Below are positions 34,226 to 60,440 of a stretch of 64,000 nt of DNA, piece after piece; the first letter of the stretch is position 1; every line of letters begins with the position of its first letter. Source of the stretch: Nitrososphaerota archaeon (GTDB lineage: Archaea > Thermoproteota > Nitrososphaeria > Nitrososphaerales > Nitrosopumilaceae); the NCBI GenBank assembly GCA_028867755.1, contig JAGWFT010000001.1:964727-1028726 (forward strand), given 5' to 3'. The notes beneath the pieces were generated by a model. That model was not told where the DNA came from, did no database searches, and saw nothing but the letters and a program-made list of their open reading frames with translations. The translations under genes were made by a program, and so were the position numbers.

Positions 34226-34471
34226 CTTTGGTTTTTCTGTAAAATCTATCTGAACCTGTATTTCAAAACTTTTTGCAGTCTATGCCGCTATGATTACAAA
34301 CAGGCTTTTATCTGCCTGTGGAGACTTCTTGATGCCATTTTGTAATTCCAGAAAATTACATTTCACTATTGTAGTACTTTGTCACTTGAATAACGCGATA
34401 TGTTTTCAAGTGATTTCCAAAATTGGAATTTGTTATCTAGAAAATATCCTACTCTTTAAATATAATTTCAA

Positions 34472-35224
34472 ATGAATTTTTATGTAATGAGTGCACCACA
34501 AGTCAAAGTAAGAACAGGAGTGCCTGGTTTTGATTCTGTAATTTCTGGTGGATTTCGAAGGGGAAAGACCATTGTTCTATCAGGTCCTCCAGGTAGTGGG
34601 AAAACAACATTTGGAATGCAGTTTCTCTATTTTGGTGCAAAAGATTTTGACGAGCCGGGAATCTTTGTAACTCTTTCTCAGAGTCCAGATGAAATAAAAA
34701 ATGACTTCAAGTCGTTTGGATGGGATGTTCAAAAATTATTTGATGATGGAAAGATGATAATAATAGACGCGCGACCGTTTAAGATGGAAGACGGGTTTAT
34801 CGCACTAGATGAATCACTCTACAGGGGAGAGTCATTACCATTTATGCATCTCACTCAGTTGATACTAAGTAGCATAAAGCGAATAGGTGCAAAGAGATTG
34901 GTGATTGATTCTCTTACGGTGCTTGGCATGCAGTATACTAACAGCTTTTACACAAGGCGAGGACTGCAGGGAATGGTTCATACACTCGAAGACCAACAAT
35001 GTACCTCTCTATTGGTATCTGAAGAGAACAAGACAGACAAGACACCTTTTGAGTGGCACGTTGTGTCAGGTATTGTACTATTGCATCACGTAAGAAAAGA
35101 GGATACGATGGAAAGGGCAATTCAAGTGATTAAAATGCGTGGTACAAAGCACAGCGAGCAAATATTTCCAATTAAACTCACAGAATCAGGGTTGCAGATA
35201 ATTCATCCTAGGATAGTTCCCTAG
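34472..35224 (+). CDS. Single-domain KaiC/RAD55-like RecA-superfamily ATPase
   Basis: SGPPGSGKT Walker A, RLVIDSL Walker B, QVIKMRGTKH. Confidence 0.92.
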   Translation: MNFYVMSAPQVKVRTGVPGFDSVISGGFRRGKTIVLSGPPGSGKTTFGMQFLYFGAKDFDEPGIFVTLSQSPDEIKNDFKSFGWDVQKLFDDGKMIIIDARPFKMEDGFIALDESLYRGESLPFMHLTQLILSSIKRIGAKRLVIDSLTVLGMQYTNSFYTRRGLQGMVHTLEDQQCTSLLVSEENKTDKTPFEWHVVSGIVLLHHVRKEDTMERAIQVIKMRGTKHSEQIFPIKLTESGLQIIHPRIVP

Positions 35225-50357: not shown

Positions 50358-50431
50358 GAGAGAATTTCATGGTTTCCAAAATATAAGATTTGTCTACCAA
50401 TTTTGGAAATGGAACAAGGATCTAGTGTAGT

Positions 50432-51130
50432 ATGTTAATTGAAAATTTGGATCTTAACACTGTGAGAATTATCACAGCTTTGGGTATGCTTGGAATTGCA
50501 TCTTTTTTAGACATACGAAAAAGGGAGATAAATGATATTGTATGGATTGGATTTGGAGCCATTGCGTGTGTATTTGTCTTTTTCAGTGATAATTTCTGGT
50601 TGACAATCAAGACATTAGGTTTGTCGATGATAATAGTTCCTATCGCGCTTTTCATATGGCGTCTTGGTATTTTTGGGGGGGCTGATGCTTTTTGTCTTAT
50701 AGTTCTTGGCGCCTTGGTCCCCATGGCATCAATACAAAGCTCTGAGATAACTCCATTTACAACACTCACTAATGCTGCAATAATCTCTATTGTTCCGCTA
50801 TTTGTAAATCTCAGTCGAAATCTAGTTGCCATGGCAAAAAGAGAAGATATCTTTAATGGCATAGATGAGACAAGATTAACTAAACTTGTGGCACTTTTTG
50901 TTGGTCATAGGGCAAAGAACACAAAATATGGATTTTCAATGGAAAGGATTGAAGGAAACCAAAAAAGGCTTGATTTTGGATTTAGGCATGCAGAAAAGAC
51001 ACAGTTTTGTAATGCATCCACGACATGGATTACCCCTGCAATACCGTATATCCTTTACATATCTGGCGGATTTGCGATTCAGATAATTTATGGTGATGTT
51101 ATCGTCAATTTGATTAAAAGTATCCACTGA
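50432..51130 (+). CDS. Prepilin peptidase (A24, PibD/FlaK-like)
   Basis: SFLDIRKREI and GGADAFCL aspartate motifs; TPAIPYI C-terminus. Confidence 0.92.
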   Translation: MLIENLDLNTVRIITALGMLGIASFLDIRKREINDIVWIGFGAIACVFVFFSDNFWLTIKTLGLSMIIVPIALFIWRLGIFGGADAFCLIVLGALVPMASIQSSEITPFTTLTNAAIISIVPLFVNLSRNLVAMAKREDIFNGIDETRLTKLVALFVGHRAKNTKYGFSMERIEGNQKRLDFGFRHAEKTQFCNASTTWITPAIPYILYISGGFAIQIIYGDVIVNLIKSIH

Positions 51131-53991: not shown

Positions 53992-54317
53992 CCAAATTTG
54001 AACAAGAACTAAAGAACAATAATTTTCTGTGTAGTCATTGTACTACATGTGATAAGCTAGTATGGCCACCAAGTGATTTTTGTAATAACTGTTTTAGTGA
54101 TGTTGTTTGGAAACCAGTTTCACGGTTTGCAAGACTTATCGAGTTTTCACGCAAAGACAATGAGTATTTTTGCATAGCAGAATTTGAAGAAAATATTAGA
54201 GTAATGGGAAGTATTCAGAATTCATCTAATTTGAAGATCAATCAACCTCTGTTTTTAGTAAAATGTGATTATGATGGTATCGAAAGGTTTGTGTTCGAAC
54301 CAGTTTTAACGTCTTAA
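53988..54317 (+). CDS. DUF35 Zn-ribbon/OB-fold thiolase partner
   Basis: CTTC..WPP..FCNNC; overlaps the thiolase stop. Confidence 0.85.
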   Translation: MTKFEQELKNNNFLCSHCTTCDKLVWPPSDFCNNCFSDVVWKPVSRFARLIEFSRKDNEYFCIAEFEENIRVMGSIQNSSNLKINQPLFLVKCDYDGIERFVFEPVLTS

Positions 54318-55109
54318 TTCTTTAAACTCGCTATCTATCTTTTCTTTCTTGAAGATCTTGATATGATCGTATACTCCAAATGAGAACAAAAGATAACTCC
54401 ACAAAAATACTATGTCTACTGGATGTCCTGTATAATACGTATTAGTAAAAGTTGTAAGCTGAAAACCGGCATCTGCAATTGTTTGTAGAATAATAGCAAG
54501 ACAAATCAGTGACCATGTGAAATTTACCTCTCCTCTAAAAAATAAAGCAACTCCAATTAGAGCTGGAACTAATAATATTGCATCAGCTATAGGATAACTT
54601 GTCGCCAGCGTATTCTCGAGCATACTAACTTTAGGATCAAAGTCATATGCCATGTAGACACTTGGAATAGATATGGCAACAGAAATCAAAATTGCAGATA
54701 TTATCATTCTCCTTGATATGGCGCGTGTAACAGGTCTTAGGTAATAAATCAAAAAACAAAAAAGTAGTGGATACCCAGATATGAAAAATACATCAGCCAA
54801 TGAAGGAAAAGGACTAATTTTGAAAACTAGTTCGTATGTTGACCATATTGTTTCTGCAATAAACCATGAAATTGAAAACCCAAGAAAAAATAACCATGCT
54901 TTACCATGATTACCAGCCTGCCTGAATCTTAAACATAACCCAGCAGATAATGCAACCTGCGCAGCAGTTACAGGAATATACACGATATCTGTTACTATCT
55001 TAACAGTCTCCTTTCCTAGAAATGTTGCAAATACTATGAGTACTCCTACAAATATTATACTATAAAGTAATGATATCTGTACACTATTTCTTGGATAATG
55101 AATATGCAA
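54306..55109 (-). CDS. Multi-pass (7-8 TM) membrane protein, sensor-domain-like
   Basis: GKAW, FPSLADVFF, YPIAD, TYYTGHPVD; paralog of 56810..57613. Confidence 0.8.
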   Translation of the reverse strand: MHIHYPRNSVQISLLYSIIFVGVLIVFATFLGKETVKIVTDIVYIPVTAAQVALSAGLCLRFRQAGNHGKAWLFFLGFSISWFIAETIWSTYELVFKISPFPSLADVFFISGYPLLFCFLIYYLRPVTRAISRRMIISAILISVAISIPSVYMAYDFDPKVSMLENTLATSYPIADAILLVPALIGVALFFRGEVNFTWSLICLAIILQTIADAGFQLTTFTNTYYTGHPVDIVFLWSYLLFSFGVYDHIKIFKKEKIDSEFKELRR

Positions 55110-55112
55110 ATT

Positions 55113-55400
55113 TTAATTCCCTATCACATTGACCATTCTTTGGACTGTACTGTCTTCAAGATGCTCCATTAATTCTATCTTGATTGATTGTGATATAGCA
55201 ACATGGGAGTTGCCAAAGACAGATTTTAGCACATTATTGAGATAATCTGGATGCTCATAACAGTCTGGAATATAACAATGATATTCCTTGTATAATTTAA
55301 TGGACACTTTGTCAAGTATGGGCTTGCCTATGTCTAAAAGTACCTTTTCAATATAAAATGACGTCAACGCTTTCATCACTTGTTTTTTATCAATATTCAT
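55113..55400 (-). CDS. Stand-alone CYxPDCYEHPxYL (NitrOD/DUF3227-like) helical domain
   Basis: Motif shared with 18465..18911; gapless alignment to the N-terminus of 57597..58232. Confidence 0.8.
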   Translation of the reverse strand: MNIDKKQVMKALTSFYIEKVLLDIGKPILDKVSIKLYKEYHCYIPDCYEHPDYLNNVLKSVFGNSHVAISQSIKIELMEHLEDSTVQRMVNVIGN

Positions 55401-55486
55401 CTAGTCAACACCTAGTTTGTCACAGCCAGAAAAGATTTTATCAAGAAACAAAAATTCTTTACAGATCTGTCTTGTGTCCATTTCTA

Positions 55487-56335
55487 CTAAGGATGTCTAG
55501 AGTTTGACCAAATGTAAGCGAATAATAATTTTAATGTATATACCATTGATAATGAATCAGTCCACATGGCAAGAATATTTTGGGGAGACTCACTTGGGTT
55601 TTTCATAAACAAAAGTAGTTCATCATCATCTTTTATGATAAAACATAGATCTTCTTTGATTTTCAATGGCATTCTTTTTACTTTGTCTTTTAACTTGCCT
55701 TCAAAAATATAGGTTGTTTTCTTTGAATTTGATGAAATGAATTGTGGTTCTACAATCGATGTTTTTATGCGTTCAAGAAACCCTGCATGATAAAATTTCA
55801 TAAAGTCTTTTTCTGATGCCAAAATCTGAATTGATTTTTTTGCATTATCAATCAAGTAGTTTATTTTTCCAGTCATTTGATTCGTGCCTTGTAATATTTG
55901 AAATCTTCCATCCTTGGTATCTTCTTTGTTGATTTTGAAGCTGGGAATAGTATTCCAGATCTCTACTAAATTCTTTTCTTGTGACTCTAGATTTTTTACT
56001 CGCTCTTTTTCTGCATTGATGAGAGTTCCTATGGCCTTATCAAGTGATAATGCTGAGAATCTAATAGGATGCTCAAAAGTGGCAGACACAATTCCCTTAT
56101 TTTGTAAATTGGTGAGAAGATAGTAAGTTTCAGTTCTTGGAATTTTCAGAGTTTTACTTATTTGTGTAGCAGTATTAGAGCCGTATTTTTCAAGATATAG
56201 ATAAACCTTGGATTGATTGGATGTAAGGCCAAATTTAGATAGCTCATTTTTGAGCTTTTCAAGTAGCATCTCATAGTCATTTGGTTTTGAGTCAAGCGAT
56301 GAGTCTAACACAGAAAAATTAGTAACAGTCGTCAT
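55487..56335 (-). CDS. TrmB-family transcriptional regulator (paralog of 35227..36081)
   Basis: GLTSNQSKVY...PRTETYYLLTNLQNKG.VSATFEHPI..SA...NAEKERV nearly identical to the other copy. Confidence 0.9.
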   Translation of the reverse strand: MTTVTNFSVLDSSLDSKPNDYEMLLEKLKNELSKFGLTSNQSKVYLYLEKYGSNTATQISKTLKIPRTETYYLLTNLQNKGIVSATFEHPIRFSALSLDKAIGTLINAEKERVKNLESQEKNLVEIWNTIPSFKINKEDTKDGRFQILQGTNQMTGKINYLIDNAKKSIQILASEKDFMKFYHAGFLERIKTSIVEPQFISSNSKKTTYIFEGKLKDKVKRMPLKIKEDLCFIIKDDDELLLFMKNPSESPQNILAMWTDSLSMVYTLKLLFAYIWSNSRHP

Positions 56336-56438
56336 ATTGCGTAATTAATACAACGGTATCTTTAGAGATCTGTATGTATCATATAATTACACACTTTTGT
56401 TGTGCATAATTTAGGCGTGTGAAACTGCTTATCTTTAA

Positions 56439-56666
56439 CTACTGGATCTGCTCAGAGAGCAAAATGACTTCTTTTGCAATTCTTTGGAATTGTCTTCTGG
56501 TTGCTTCATTCATGTCATGAACTTTTTTCACTTGAATGATTTCAAACATTATTTTTATCATGGATGAAACTGTTAACTGGCTTACAGGTTTTTTGCTGAT
56601 CTGAATTTTGTCTATGTTCATTTGTTTTGTTTGTGAATTAAGCTTGTTTGCTGTCAATACTGACAT
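56439..56666 (-). CDS. Small hypothetical protein
   Basis: 75-aa ATG ORF, helical. Confidence 0.55.
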   Translation of the reverse strand: MSVLTANKLNSQTKQMNIDKIQISKKPVSQLTVSSMIKIMFEIIQVKKVHDMNEATRRQFQRIAKEVILLSEQIQ

Positions 56667-56809
56667 ATTTTTCTTAAGTTATATTAGCATAAAAATATGT
56701 CCTGCCAAAATTGGAAATATATTTTATTATTAACTATAGCTAAGTAACAAAATAATGTGACACAGCCTAGATCAAAGAATCATATTAATTGATTTTATCA
56801 AAACTGTTT

Positions 56810-57613
56810 CTAAATAATTTTCTGATGTTTGTAGAGTGCATATGCTATTACTAGATAGCCGGCATAATAACACATGTTCATTGGATGAGTCAGAGTGTAT
56901 TGATCAAATGTATCCAAGTAACCATACCAAATATCGCCTGTGGTAGTAAGTATGATTCCAATTAGTAGAACTAACCATGCAACCCCCAGCACTCCCTGTC
57001 TGAATATTCTTGCACCCAACATTGTTCCTGAGAGTACAATAGAAGACAAAACTACGTAAGTTAAACCACTAAAGAATGTTAAATCAGGATGCCCAATTTT
57101 ACTATAGGACAAGTAACTATACACTGATGTAATCACTATTGGAATAGCTACTACCCATGCTTTTGTCAAATACCCAATTTTTGGCTTGAAGAATCGTATG
57201 TTTGAGATGAGGTGAACTAGAACTAGTGGATAAAATGAATAAAAAACAATGTCAGCTGCGGTAAAAGTCGTATCCATTCCCAAAGTATCGTAAACTCCAT
57301 AGATGATTTCTCCGCCTGCGTTCATGGCAAGAGCTAATGCCAAAGCAAGATATGCTTTGCCAAAAACTTTTGATCCTTTGTATTGTTTTGCCACATAAAA
57401 TCCAAACACTGTTGCAATTGATGGATTGATAATGGATACAATATCTAGTAGTCCTGATGCGTCATCAGGTTTTGGAAATGCGTAGTAAAGATATGCTTGA
57501 AAGGATACGATTAGTATAGCTATTGAAATTAAAATTTTATAATTTATTTTACTTGTAAGTCGTTCTGGTACAACCTCTGGCGTCTCTGAGTCTTTTTTAT
57601 TCCACCGTAACAA
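56810..57613 (-). CDS. Multi-pass (7-8 TM) membrane protein, sensor-domain-like
   Basis: GKAYL, TAADIVFYSFYP, GVAWL, GDIWY, QYTLTHPMN; paralog of 54306..55109. Confidence 0.8.
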   Translation of the reverse strand: MLRWNKKDSETPEVVPERLTSKINYKILISIAILIVSFQAYLYYAFPKPDDASGLLDIVSIINPSIATVFGFYVAKQYKGSKVFGKAYLALALALAMNAGGEIIYGVYDTLGMDTTFTAADIVFYSFYPLVLVHLISNIRFFKPKIGYLTKAWVVAIPIVITSVYSYLSYSKIGHPDLTFFSGLTYVVLSSIVLSGTMLGARIFRQGVLGVAWLVLLIGIILTTTGDIWYGYLDTFDQYTLTHPMNMCYYAGYLVIAYALYKHQKII

Positions 57614-58232
57614 GATGCTTTTCGCCCCTTAGCATCTGGATCATCATGCTGTTGCTGATAGATTCTTTTGTGAGTTGAACTTGCACTATTACTTTGTTTT
57701 TTTCTATCTGGATTCTAATATTTTCAAAGATTGATGCATATTTGCTTACTTTCTTACCATCCTGCGTAAATTCGTGTCCATTCACTACGAGAAATCCATC
57801 TTGGATCAACTTGTTGATTTTTCTATAGCCTGATGTCTGAGGAATATTGCAGGTCTCCAAAATATCTGAAATTATCTTGGGCTGGTCAAGTACGGCATCT
57901 ATTATGTTTTTTTTATCGTCATCACCAAATGACATTAAAATTAATTTGGCTAGATACCGATCTTCAATAGTAATCCATTCTTTAGCCTCCTTCTTAGCAC
58001 GTTCTATTGTCATCATGTGCTGTAAGAACTGTCTTTCTATGCCTTCTGCCCCATCGCCAAAAAATTCTCTTAAGACAGAATCTAGTTTGGGAAAATCTTC
58101 TGTTGCGTTAGTAAGATTTATTCCATATTTTTCAAAGAGTCTCTGTTCTATTTTATCAACTGTTTTCTGACCTAGATTATTTTTTACAATATCTCCTAGG
58201 GATTTCCCAATAAGGCTGTCGAATCCAGGCAT
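57597..58232 (-). CDS. DUF3227/NitrOD-like domain fused to a winged-helix DNA-binding domain
   Basis: LGQKTVDKIEQRLFEKYG...VLREFFG N-domain; IPQTSGYRKINKLIQDGFL wHTH. Confidence 0.8.
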   Translation of the reverse strand: MPGFDSLIGKSLGDIVKNNLGQKTVDKIEQRLFEKYGINLTNATEDFPKLDSVLREFFGDGAEGIERQFLQHMMTIERAKKEAKEWITIEDRYLAKLILMSFGDDDKKNIIDAVLDQPKIISDILETCNIPQTSGYRKINKLIQDGFLVVNGHEFTQDGKKVSKYASIFENIRIQIEKNKVIVQVQLTKESISNSMMIQMLRGEKHLVTVE

Positions 58233-58327
58233 GCATTTCTTGTGAGTATATGCTTAAAATGCAGTTGTATGTCATTCAAAAATGTGACAAGGCTTATTTA
58301 TCGATCTGTATTTCCCAAATATGGGAA

Positions 58328-58837
58328 ATGAGCAGGCTAATTATCGATGAAAGTAATCTTAGGAGTCTTCCAGTCAGTGAACGATTAGATAAATGCCTAG
58401 GAATACTAATGAAAGAAACAGATGAATCTCTTAGATGGGATGCTGTATGGTTAGCAGGTGAAATAGCTGAGATCAGTGGACCTGATGATCCTATCTTTGG
58501 TAAAGTATCTGATCTAATGGCATGGGTTTTAAAAAATGAAGCAAACGGGGTTGTCAAGCATGAAGCTTGTTATCAAATTGCTGCTAGGAACATGAGGGAA
58601 AAGATCCCAGACCTGATCGATGTTGCGTTAAAAGATCCTAGCATTATAGCACGACATGAGTCTATCGAGTCGCTAGGCTTGATGCGTGCTTTTGATACTA
58701 AGGAGATGCTTGCAAGAGCTACAAACGATCCAAATCCAGATGTAAAGGAAACCGCCCTTTTTGTACTAAAGAGATTGGAAAGATTGGAAAAACTAGAGGA
58801 AAATAAAAAAACCTATCAACCATCCAACATTCTCTGA
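58328..58837 (+). CDS. HEAT-repeat protein resembling one half of deoxyhypusine hydroxylase
   Basis: VVKHEACY...IPDLIDV...ARHESIESLG; probable ATG at 58328 (ORF track start 58250). Confidence 0.7.
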   Translation: MSRLIIDESNLRSLPVSERLDKCLGILMKETDESLRWDAVWLAGEIAEISGPDDPIFGKVSDLMAWVLKNEANGVVKHEACYQIAARNMREKIPDLIDVALKDPSIIARHESIESLGLMRAFDTKEMLARATNDPNPDVKETALFVLKRLERLEKLEENKKTYQPSNIL

Positions 58838-58879: not shown

Positions 58880-59401
58880 TTAACGCTGCTCAATTTTTGG
58901 CAATTTTGGAAACCTCACTTCTCGCAAAACAGTATAGGGTGTTTTCTTTGATTCGTCTGGTAGGATCAAATCTGTGTTGTCTGCAAAAGATGCGATCTCG
59001 TCGAAGATTTTGTTTATCTCCATATCTTTTTCTAATCTTTCCAGATATTTTTCACTCCATTCCCAATTGCTATCAGGATTGCAAGAATACACTATCCAAT
59101 GAAATTTACCTTCTACAAATAATATGTCAAAAGGATACGCTCTACAATCAAATGGTCTTTGTTCATATATACTACATAATTTTTTTTCTTCATTCCAAAA
59201 AACACAATTAGAAGAGTTTTGTTTTTTTTTCAAAGCTTTGACTTTTCTGCCTTTGATATCAAGTTCTTGTATGTATAGGTCTTGAGCCTTGCCAATAGAT
59301 TTGAGTGCCTCAAAGTCAGTAGAAAAAACTAGAGGAACGGTTGAATCTGTACAGCATCCATGAGAGGCACAGTTATCACACAATCTCTTAAAACTAATCA
59401 T
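58880..59401 (-). CDS. YkgJ/CxxCxxCC-family Cys-cluster protein
   Basis: CDNC..HGCC, CVFW....LCSIYEQRPFDCRAYPF; probable ATG at 59401. Confidence 0.88.
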   Translation of the reverse strand: MISFKRLCDNCASHGCCTDSTVPLVFSTDFEALKSIGKAQDLYIQELDIKGRKVKALKKKQNSSNCVFWNEEKKLCSIYEQRPFDCRAYPFDILFVEGKFHWIVYSCNPDSNWEWSEKYLERLEKDMEINKIFDEIASFADNTDLILPDESKKTPYTVLREVRFPKLPKIEQR

Positions 59402-60440
59402 GTTCCTTAATCTCATGTGTAGCACTTTGTTTTATTCCAACTAGCCTATTTCTAAGTAGATACAAGCCCACAAATGCGGTGGATACTGAAATTACATTTG
59501 TTATGGAAATTGTTTCGTGTAGAAATATGACAGAAAAGACTACTCCAAATGCAGAATTTATTGAATAAATCAAAATTGTTCTAACTGCGCCTATTAGTTT
59601 AAGACCTGTAACAAATAATGCTGTAGAAAGACCAATGCTGACAACACCAATTATTGCAATAGGAGGTATCTGAAGAGGGTTTATGTCTAATTTGATCTGT
59701 AATGCCAAGATGAGGCCTAGGGCAAAGCCTGCTGCCATAAATGAGGCAAGTTGGGTGATTCTTTGAGAACCTATTCTCTCGCTAACATACTTTGACATGT
59801 TAATATCAAGTGCCCAAAACAATCCTGCTGTAAGTAGAAGGATATCTCCTAGTACAAGTTTAGTCATCATCAAGCCATTGCTATAAATGTCATATCCAAC
59901 TGGTAATGCAATCATGCCAACTGTTATCATGGAAAATGGCAGTCGTTCCATTTTTTGTAATCGTTCACGAAAAACAATAATTGCAATTAATAGTGAAAAC
60001 AAAATCTCGCCATTATTTAGAACTGAGGCGTTTATTGCTGTAGAGTCATGCAAACCATAGAAATATGTAATGAGTGCAGAGCCTTCTGCAATACCTATAA
60101 AAATTAGCAAAATCAGATCTTTCTTTTTAATTTGTAAGATGGAATGGTTTTTTCTTGCAAGAGTGGTAAAAAAAATACCATTAACAATGAAGATAACAAA
60201 AGATATTGTAATAGGATTAAGATTGGATATGTCTAAAGTATCTGGAACTAGGAATGCCTTTGAAAGAATTTGACGAAAAGCTTCTAGTGTTGCAGCAATG
60301 ATAACTGCAATATATCCTAGTTTTGTGCTAGAGAATAATCCGGTATGATCGCTTCGAATTTTATCTATTCCTCCGGGTATCCCCATATTCGGAAATAACC
60401 TGGCAACCTTAATAACCTTAAATAGTACCTGTATTGACAA
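59394..60440 (-). CDS. DMT/EamA-family transporter
   Basis: About 10 TM, AINASVL, IFRERL, GDILLL.A..FWAL, FLHETI; start may be internal (MGIPGG). Confidence 0.88.
   Translation of the reverse strand: MSIQVLFKVIKVARLFPNMGIPGGIDKIRSDHTGLFSSTKLGYIAVIIAATLEAFRQILSKAFLVPDTLDISNLNPITISFVIFIVNGIFFTTLARKNHSILQIKKKDLILLIFIGIAEGSALITYFYGLHDSTAINASVLNNGEILFSLLIAIIVFRERLQKMERLPFSMITVGMIALPVGYDIYSNGLMMTKLVLGDILLLTAGLFWALDINMSKYVSERIGSQRITQLASFMAAGFALGLILALQIKLDINPLQIPPIAIIGVVSIGLSTALFVTGLKLIGAVRTILIYSINSAFGVVFSVIFLHETISITNVISVSTAFVGLYLLRNRLVGIKQSATHEIKEHD

Follow-up and report, generated by a model that had tools for sequence, protein, structure and literature searches.

A conserved single-lobe DOHH-type HEAT protein of Nitrosopumilaceae, and a paralogue that is the better candidate for archaeal deoxyhypusine hydroxylase

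Eukaryotic deoxyhypusine hydroxylase (DOHH/Lia1; EC 1.14.99.29; PDB 4D4Z/4D50) holds two Fe per holoenzyme, passes through a peroxo-diiron intermediate and hydroxylates deoxyhypusine on IF5A. The diiron centre of the human enzyme is anchored by H56, H89, E90, H207, H240 and E241, the residues that bind the deoxyhypusine side chain include the glycine G214 and its N-lobe equivalent, and E57 and E90 contact the substrate, with E57 contacting it rather than iron (PMC9117371). That paper prints 'G65' for the N-lobe glycine; we use the register of first His + 7, which agrees with G214. According to papers of 2016 and 2018 no DOHH homologue is known in archaea (PMC5178350; PMC6105217), and our literature search found no link of DOHH or hypusine to Thaumarchaeota, Asgard archaea, Nitrosopumilus or ammonia-oxidising archaea.

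The stretch of DNA analysed here, 64,000 nucleotides in length (the window), contains a gene, referred to below as A, that the first-pass annotation had described as encoding a half-size DOHH-like protein and had proposed as a candidate for the missing archaeal DOHH. The open reading frame and the peptide quoted for it are real, and the top PDB sequence match of A is indeed human DOHH (4d4z; E 3.7e-8 in a single-sequence search). The frame is open from 58250 to 58837 on the forward strand, and translation from the ATG at 58328 yields 169 aa (MSRLIIDES...), a start with which more than 1000 homologues of 165-171 aa agree in both length and N-terminus. A longer protein beginning at 58250 was rejected, because the homologues begin at MS... 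and because the TATA-like box and palindrome discussed below would then fall within the extension. The homologues belong to Nitrosopumilaceae and to ammonia oxidisers of the Nitrososphaera type, lineages with cultured representatives. We consider the best explanation of the whole, at slightly better than even odds (a probability of roughly 0.55), to be that A is an accessory DOHH-type metalloprotein lobe, probably a conditionally expressed oxygenase, and not the primary aIF5A hydroxylase. This explanation is carried by the homology, motif invariance, distribution, synteny, fusions and palindrome set out below, whereas iron binding, dimerisation, oxygenase chemistry and regulation of A are properties that we infer.

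Table 1. Gene A, its diagnostic codons and the features around it (window coordinates).
Feature	Position	Strand	Basis or remark
267-aa multi-TM, membrane-sensor-like protein	56810..57613	-	a- or b-type copy near A in 13/13 loci
211-aa wHTH regulator-like protein, divergent from A	57597..58232	-	beside A in 10/13 loci
TATA-like box CTTATTTATC, about 10 nt upstream of the palindrome	58293..58302	+	putative; read from the sequence
Palindrome TTCCCA-AATA-TGGGAA, candidate operator	58312..58327	.	abuts the start codon of A
Gene A, 169-aa single-lobe HE-motif HEAT protein (DOHH-like)	58328..58837	+	ORF; Pfam HEAT_2; top PDB match human DOHH
Codons H78-E79, first His-Glu motif; aligns to human H56-E57	58559..58564	+	invariant in 41 homologues and 68 aligned lobes; 4d4z alignment
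Codon A85, position of the DOHH substrate-binding Gly (first His + 7)	58580..58582	+	lobe alignment; role of Gly from PMC9117371
Codons H110-E111...E114, second His-Glu motif; aligns to human H89-E90...E93	58655..58669	+	invariant; 4d4z alignment
CxxCxxCC (PF03692) protein, not a conserved partner	58880..59425	-	Pfam E 1e-10; convergent to A

Automatic annotation gives members of the A family exclusively the label 'HEAT repeat protein'. Pfam assigns A to HEAT_2 (PF13646) alone (E 3.7e-10; 40.4 bits against a gathering cut-off of 27.7), and an NCBIfam search with A gave no informative match. PBS-lyase-type HEAT-like repeats and alphaReps (PF13646 HEAT_2, PF03130) accordingly share with A its scaffold, Pfam assignment and monomer fold (TMq 0.63), but unlike A they have variable residues at the positions of its invariant His-Glu pairs. 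They also match the A profile less well than DOHH does, by at least nine orders of magnitude: this family profile, built from 41 homologues, matched both lobes of 4d4z at E 1.4e-23, and the runners-up, designed alphaRep/HEAT proteins, began only at 8e-15. Because of this gap the resemblance to DOHH is specific, and the proposal that it reflects generic HEAT similarity was ruled out by the two E-values together with the motif invariance described below. Fold search is a poor discriminator here, since with the monomer model of A (pLDDT 93.3) DOHH ranked top but nearly tied with the alphaReps.

The two His-Glu motifs of A, H78-E79 in VVKHEACYQIA and H110-E111 in ARHESIESLG, are spaced 32 residues apart. 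A has the same HEAT-hairpin lobe as DOHH, with two His-Glu motifs per lobe at equal spacing, a downstream Tyr and Glu, and the conserved Arg of the first hairpin. In the alignment to the human enzyme, H78, H110 and E111 fall on iron-anchoring residues, and Y82 and E114 fall on Y60 and E93, which bears out the earlier observation that A has one DOHH half's two HE motifs together with the Glu and Tyr downstream. Conservation among orthologues, on which the first-pass annotation had staked its assignment, is strict: H78, E79, H110, E111 and E114, as well as R19 and R36, are invariant in the 41 homologues at identities down to 32%. Across natural A-A fusions, fusions of a paralogue B, eukaryotic DOHH and a family of about 250 aa with four HE motifs, all eight H/E residues are invariant. 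Judged by its sequence, A truly belongs to the DOHH-type His-Glu HEAT superfamily, as a conserved member with a single lobe. Each A chain would correspond to one lobe, of about five HEAT hairpins, of a DOHH-type metalloprotein, and would bring the His, His and Glu with which DOHH binds one iron.

A differs from DOHH in both size and substrate pocket. It has 169 aa against about 300, and one lobe with two HE motifs per chain against the eight hairpins, two lobes and four HE motifs of DOHH. An extra N-terminal hairpin carries conserved residues of its own, and R19, W66, Q83, R149 and R152 are conserved surface residues peculiar to A. Of the DOHH substrate residues A keeps both Glu, but the Gly is replaced by Ala85; the His + 7 position is Gly in 46/46 DOHH-group lobes and Ala in the majority (55%) of the A family. 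Since Ala is a conservative change, and deeper members of the A branch retain Gly, it is possible on these grounds that A shares the aIF5A substrate. On the reading that we prefer, the likelier target of A is another amine or lysine-derived substrate, the other possibility being that it serves aIF5A in particular situations.

The first-pass annotation had also suggested that a homodimer of A could rebuild the diiron centre, and natural fusions speak for self-pairing into a DOHH-like two-lobe unit. In searches covering longer proteins, the longer forms of A were A-A fusions only, and no A-B or A-X fusion was found among them. The 316-aa fusions P0121/P0397, with lobes 45-47% identical, occur on several contigs. 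P0396 (333 aa, lobes 99% identical) was given little weight, because it could have arisen by duplication very recently or be an artefact of assembly. The in-frame tandem duplication of gene A at L025:1920-2921 (333 aa, lobes 99% identical), to which the same caveat applies, is in a locus syntenic with the window, with the 75-aa, TM and wHTH genes on one side and the CxxCxxCC and EamA genes on the other. A further A-A fusion from a single contig, P0272, is divergent from an FMN-reductase-like gene (a weak Pfam match) that is a possible electron donor; also nearby are a response regulator gene, a second small HEAT gene, and genes for SET-domain proteins and methyltransferases.

A structural model of P0121 (pLDDT 92.3, pTM 0.90) aligns with 4d4z over its full length (about 315 columns; TM 0.67/0.73; rmsd 4.3-5.0 Å), compared with TM of at most 0.45 and rmsd above 12 Å for all other HEAT/ARM structures. 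Since DOHH homologues were part of the alignment used for P0121, and 4d4z part of the training data of AlphaFold, this clamshell is a matter of consistency and not independent evidence. Taken together, the natural A-A fusions and the modelled DOHH-like clamshell make a two-lobe, two-iron dimer of A plausible. In such a dimer two A chains would most likely pair face to face, like the N and C lobes of DOHH, and could form a two-iron, O2-activating centre within the clamshell.

The same genome encodes a paralogue, B (G000:C24:1173580-1174071; L005:1483-1974, reverse strand), on the same contig and 150 kb from A. It is listed as 164 aa, probably 162 aa from an ATG at MELIPNG, and carries two VRHEAA motifs; its closest relatives are Nitrosotalea proteins (91% identity), and many members of its family are labelled 'deoxyhypusine monooxygenase' by JGI automatic annotation. 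Like A, B is a half-size protein of the same predicted architecture with two HE motifs, and the two are 32% identical over 135 residues. By sequence similarity B is much the closer to DOHH, matching 4d4z at E 3.6e-19 against 3.7e-8 for A. The same holds for the positions conserved in at least 70% of DOHH-group lobes, of which B keeps 19/19 and the A-family consensus 13/19. A quick tree was built on 149 columns from 68 lobes, with half-size proteins entered whole and full-size ones split into their N and C halves. In it, A forms a clade with a long stem (SH-aLRT 100) that lies outside a group (100) containing B, the eukaryotic DOHH N and C lobes and the family of about 250 aa. On the preferred reading, A would be an accessory branch at the level of Nitrosopumilaceae, with a substrate pocket altered by the change from Gly to Ala at His + 7 and by surface residues of its own.

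The full-size four-HE family of about 250 aa comprises P0163 (MCY3413108.1) and its relatives P0152, P0191, P0207, P0255 and P0261, and groups close to B and the eukaryotic DOHH lobes. A Heimdallarchaeota MAG is the source of at least one member, whose only annotation is 'HEAT repeat protein'.

In the tree, the lobe pairs of B-B fusions, of eukaryotic N-C proteins and of the N-C proteins of about 250 aa each group by type, which indicates that same-type fusion happened repeatedly. Because same-type lobes have been fused independently several times, it is conceivable that eukaryotic DOHH arose from a homodimer, and the fusions show how its two-lobe form could have come about.

The distributions of the two paralogues also differ. 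We surveyed a further 300 genomes of the phylum. Within the same family, 42/43 genomes had a B-type match at E<=1e-39, and two other families had such matches in 7/11 and 2/11 of their genomes. At this threshold A orthologues were confined to the family, where about 23/43 genomes have one; even a genome of the same genus (G175) has none. Every A-bearing genome sampled also has B, and about 19/42 family genomes have B without A. Most of the other Thermoproteota genomes sampled yielded no match to either A or B at E<=1e-5. The A/B family therefore cannot be the general archaeal DOHH, nor can it account for the hypusine that has been reported from Sulfolobus and other Crenarchaea (PMC5178350).

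These data bear on the proposal that A and B form a heterodimer in imitation of eukaryotic DOHH, whose N and C lobes are not identical. This genome has both genes, and the constant company of B in A-bearing genomes would suit such a partnership, as would the non-identity of the eukaryotic lobes themselves. We nevertheless regard a heterodimer as very improbable, given that B does without A in about 19/42 family genomes and in two other families, that natural fusions join A to A and B to B but never A to B, and that the two genes lie 150 kb apart behind differing upstream regions.

The hypusine pathway itself is represented in the 1.64-Mb genome by an aIF5A with an SKPGKHGAAKA loop and by two DHS-family (PF01916) genes at G000:C24:341362-343992 (L001, L002), whose open frames encode 316 aa and 360 aa (ORF 358 aa). 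An ORF between them was read by eye as a pyruvoyl-type arginine decarboxylase. These genes are about 680 kb from A on the contig, and A has no genomic linkage to DHS or aIF5A; its 13 orthologous loci show no link to translation or polyamine genes. For the B type such a link exists on an 18-kb metagenomic contig, where a B-B fusion of 363 aa with four HE motifs (P0147, L019:4001-5092) directly follows genes for DHS, an Orn/Arg decarboxylase, a CN-hydrolase and an agmatine deiminase, a context that provides strong guilt-by-association for action of the B type in the hypusine pathway.

The suggestion that A is a genuine, homodimeric aIF5A deoxyhypusine hydroxylase, either as an isozyme of B or as the main enzyme, has to be weighed against this background. 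All of the iron ligands are conserved in A, as are the equivalents of the substrate-contacting E57 and E90, the genome provides both the aIF5A and the DHS-family genes, and the literature names no archaeal DOHH (PMC5178350; PMC6105217). We still think it rather unlikely: B is nearer to DOHH by every measure, is near-universal in the family and is of the type found beside DHS, whereas A has lost the substrate-binding Gly, lacks the translation and polyamine links and does not occur at all in about half of the related genomes, one from the same genus among them. The earlier choice of A as the missing archaeal DOHH is therefore not upheld, A being patchy and never found without B. On account of its E-value, its position in the tree, its conserved positions (including the Gly), its near-universality and the DHS linkage seen elsewhere, B is the better candidate, and the role of primary aIF5A hydroxylase would fit this core paralogue and not A.

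With two single-lobe DOHH homologues in these archaea, the question of an archaeal DOHH becomes testable with two small soluble proteins. For gene A itself, the value lies in telling a likely true DOHH (B) apart from a divergent paralogue, one that might act on a new substrate or as a sensor and that would mislead if it were chosen for a DOHH assay.

A further difference from B is that the patchy, divergent A is tied to a sensor/regulator module (Table 1; synteny was counted over the 13 orthologous A loci). The nearest named atlas neighbours of the 211-aa protein are HTH/TrmB-type regulators, and the predicted fold of the multi-TM protein resembles membrane sensor modules of bacterial GGDEF/histidine-kinase proteins (TM 0.70-0.79); both similarities are no more than leads. 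Because the wHTH family is multi-copy and is found in A-less genomes too, the synteny may represent co-location in a variable gene island and not shared function. An EamA gene is near A in 4/13 loci.

Within the window, a module of a soluble-domain gene and a multi-TM gene is duplicated around a TrmB-like gene (54306-58232), pairing a 95-aa protein with one 267-aa TM protein (TM267a) and the 211-aa wHTH protein with the other (TM267b). In several related genomes the match to the 211-aa protein has one in-frame stop, which suggests split forms in which the N-domain and the wHTH are separate genes.

The gene on the other side of A encodes a CxxCxxCC protein that the first-pass annotation had considered as a possible supplier of electrons. 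Its position next to A and its PF03692 assignment were confirmed. As a redox partner it was rejected: it is convergent to A and adjacent in only 1/13 orthologous loci (L006), plus the close relative L025. The facing 3' ends of the two genes are 42 bp apart, so they are not co-transcribed.

The regular presence of a wHTH regulator and a sensor-like TM protein near A leads to a third alternative, namely that A is a non-catalytic partner of this system that senses metal, O2 or redox state, or else a plain HEAT scaffold. Most HEAT proteins are binders, and the loss of the substrate-pocket Gly would be in keeping with such a role. This seems quite unlikely to us, as strict invariance of the exact DOHH ligand set, including E79, fits retained catalysis better, and the wHTH/TM module also exists without A.

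Immediately before the A start codon is a palindrome (Table 1). The motif TTYCCA-N4-TGGRA occupies this place in 9/13 orthologous loci, with degenerate versions in 3 more, whatever gene lies upstream, and A/T-rich boxes occur in orthologous loci at the position matching the TATA-like box. The palindromic motif is rare in the genome and enriched in the window (5 matches against 0.31 expected), and it is absent from the region upstream of B. We take the palindrome to be a candidate operator overlapping the transcription start, an arrangement that would make A a specifically regulated gene. As the accessory lobe of our preferred reading, A would be under its own operator-like palindrome, beside a membrane-sensor and wHTH-regulator module, and would probably be a conditionally expressed oxygenase.

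A bolder version, which we put forward only tentatively, is that the A-type proteins form a second functional class of HEAT-repeat diiron proteins, so far unrecognised, acting as homodimeric oxygenases or O2/iron sensors on a target other than aIF5A and switched on through the palindromic operator by the membrane-sensor/wHTH system that ammonia-oxidising archaea carry beside A. If so, DOHH would no longer be the sole enzyme of its fold.

The TYCCARNWWTGGNA palindrome has further copies in the window at 34415-34428, 50395-50408 and 56703-56716. The first is 44 nt upstream of a KaiC/RecA-like ATPase gene (34472-35224, forward strand, read by eye), the second lies between an 82-aa ORF and a prepilin-peptidase-like gene (50432-51130, forward strand, read by eye), and the third is 37 nt upstream of a 75-aa ORF (56439-56666, reverse strand). 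Together with gene A, these copies may mark a small shared regulon.
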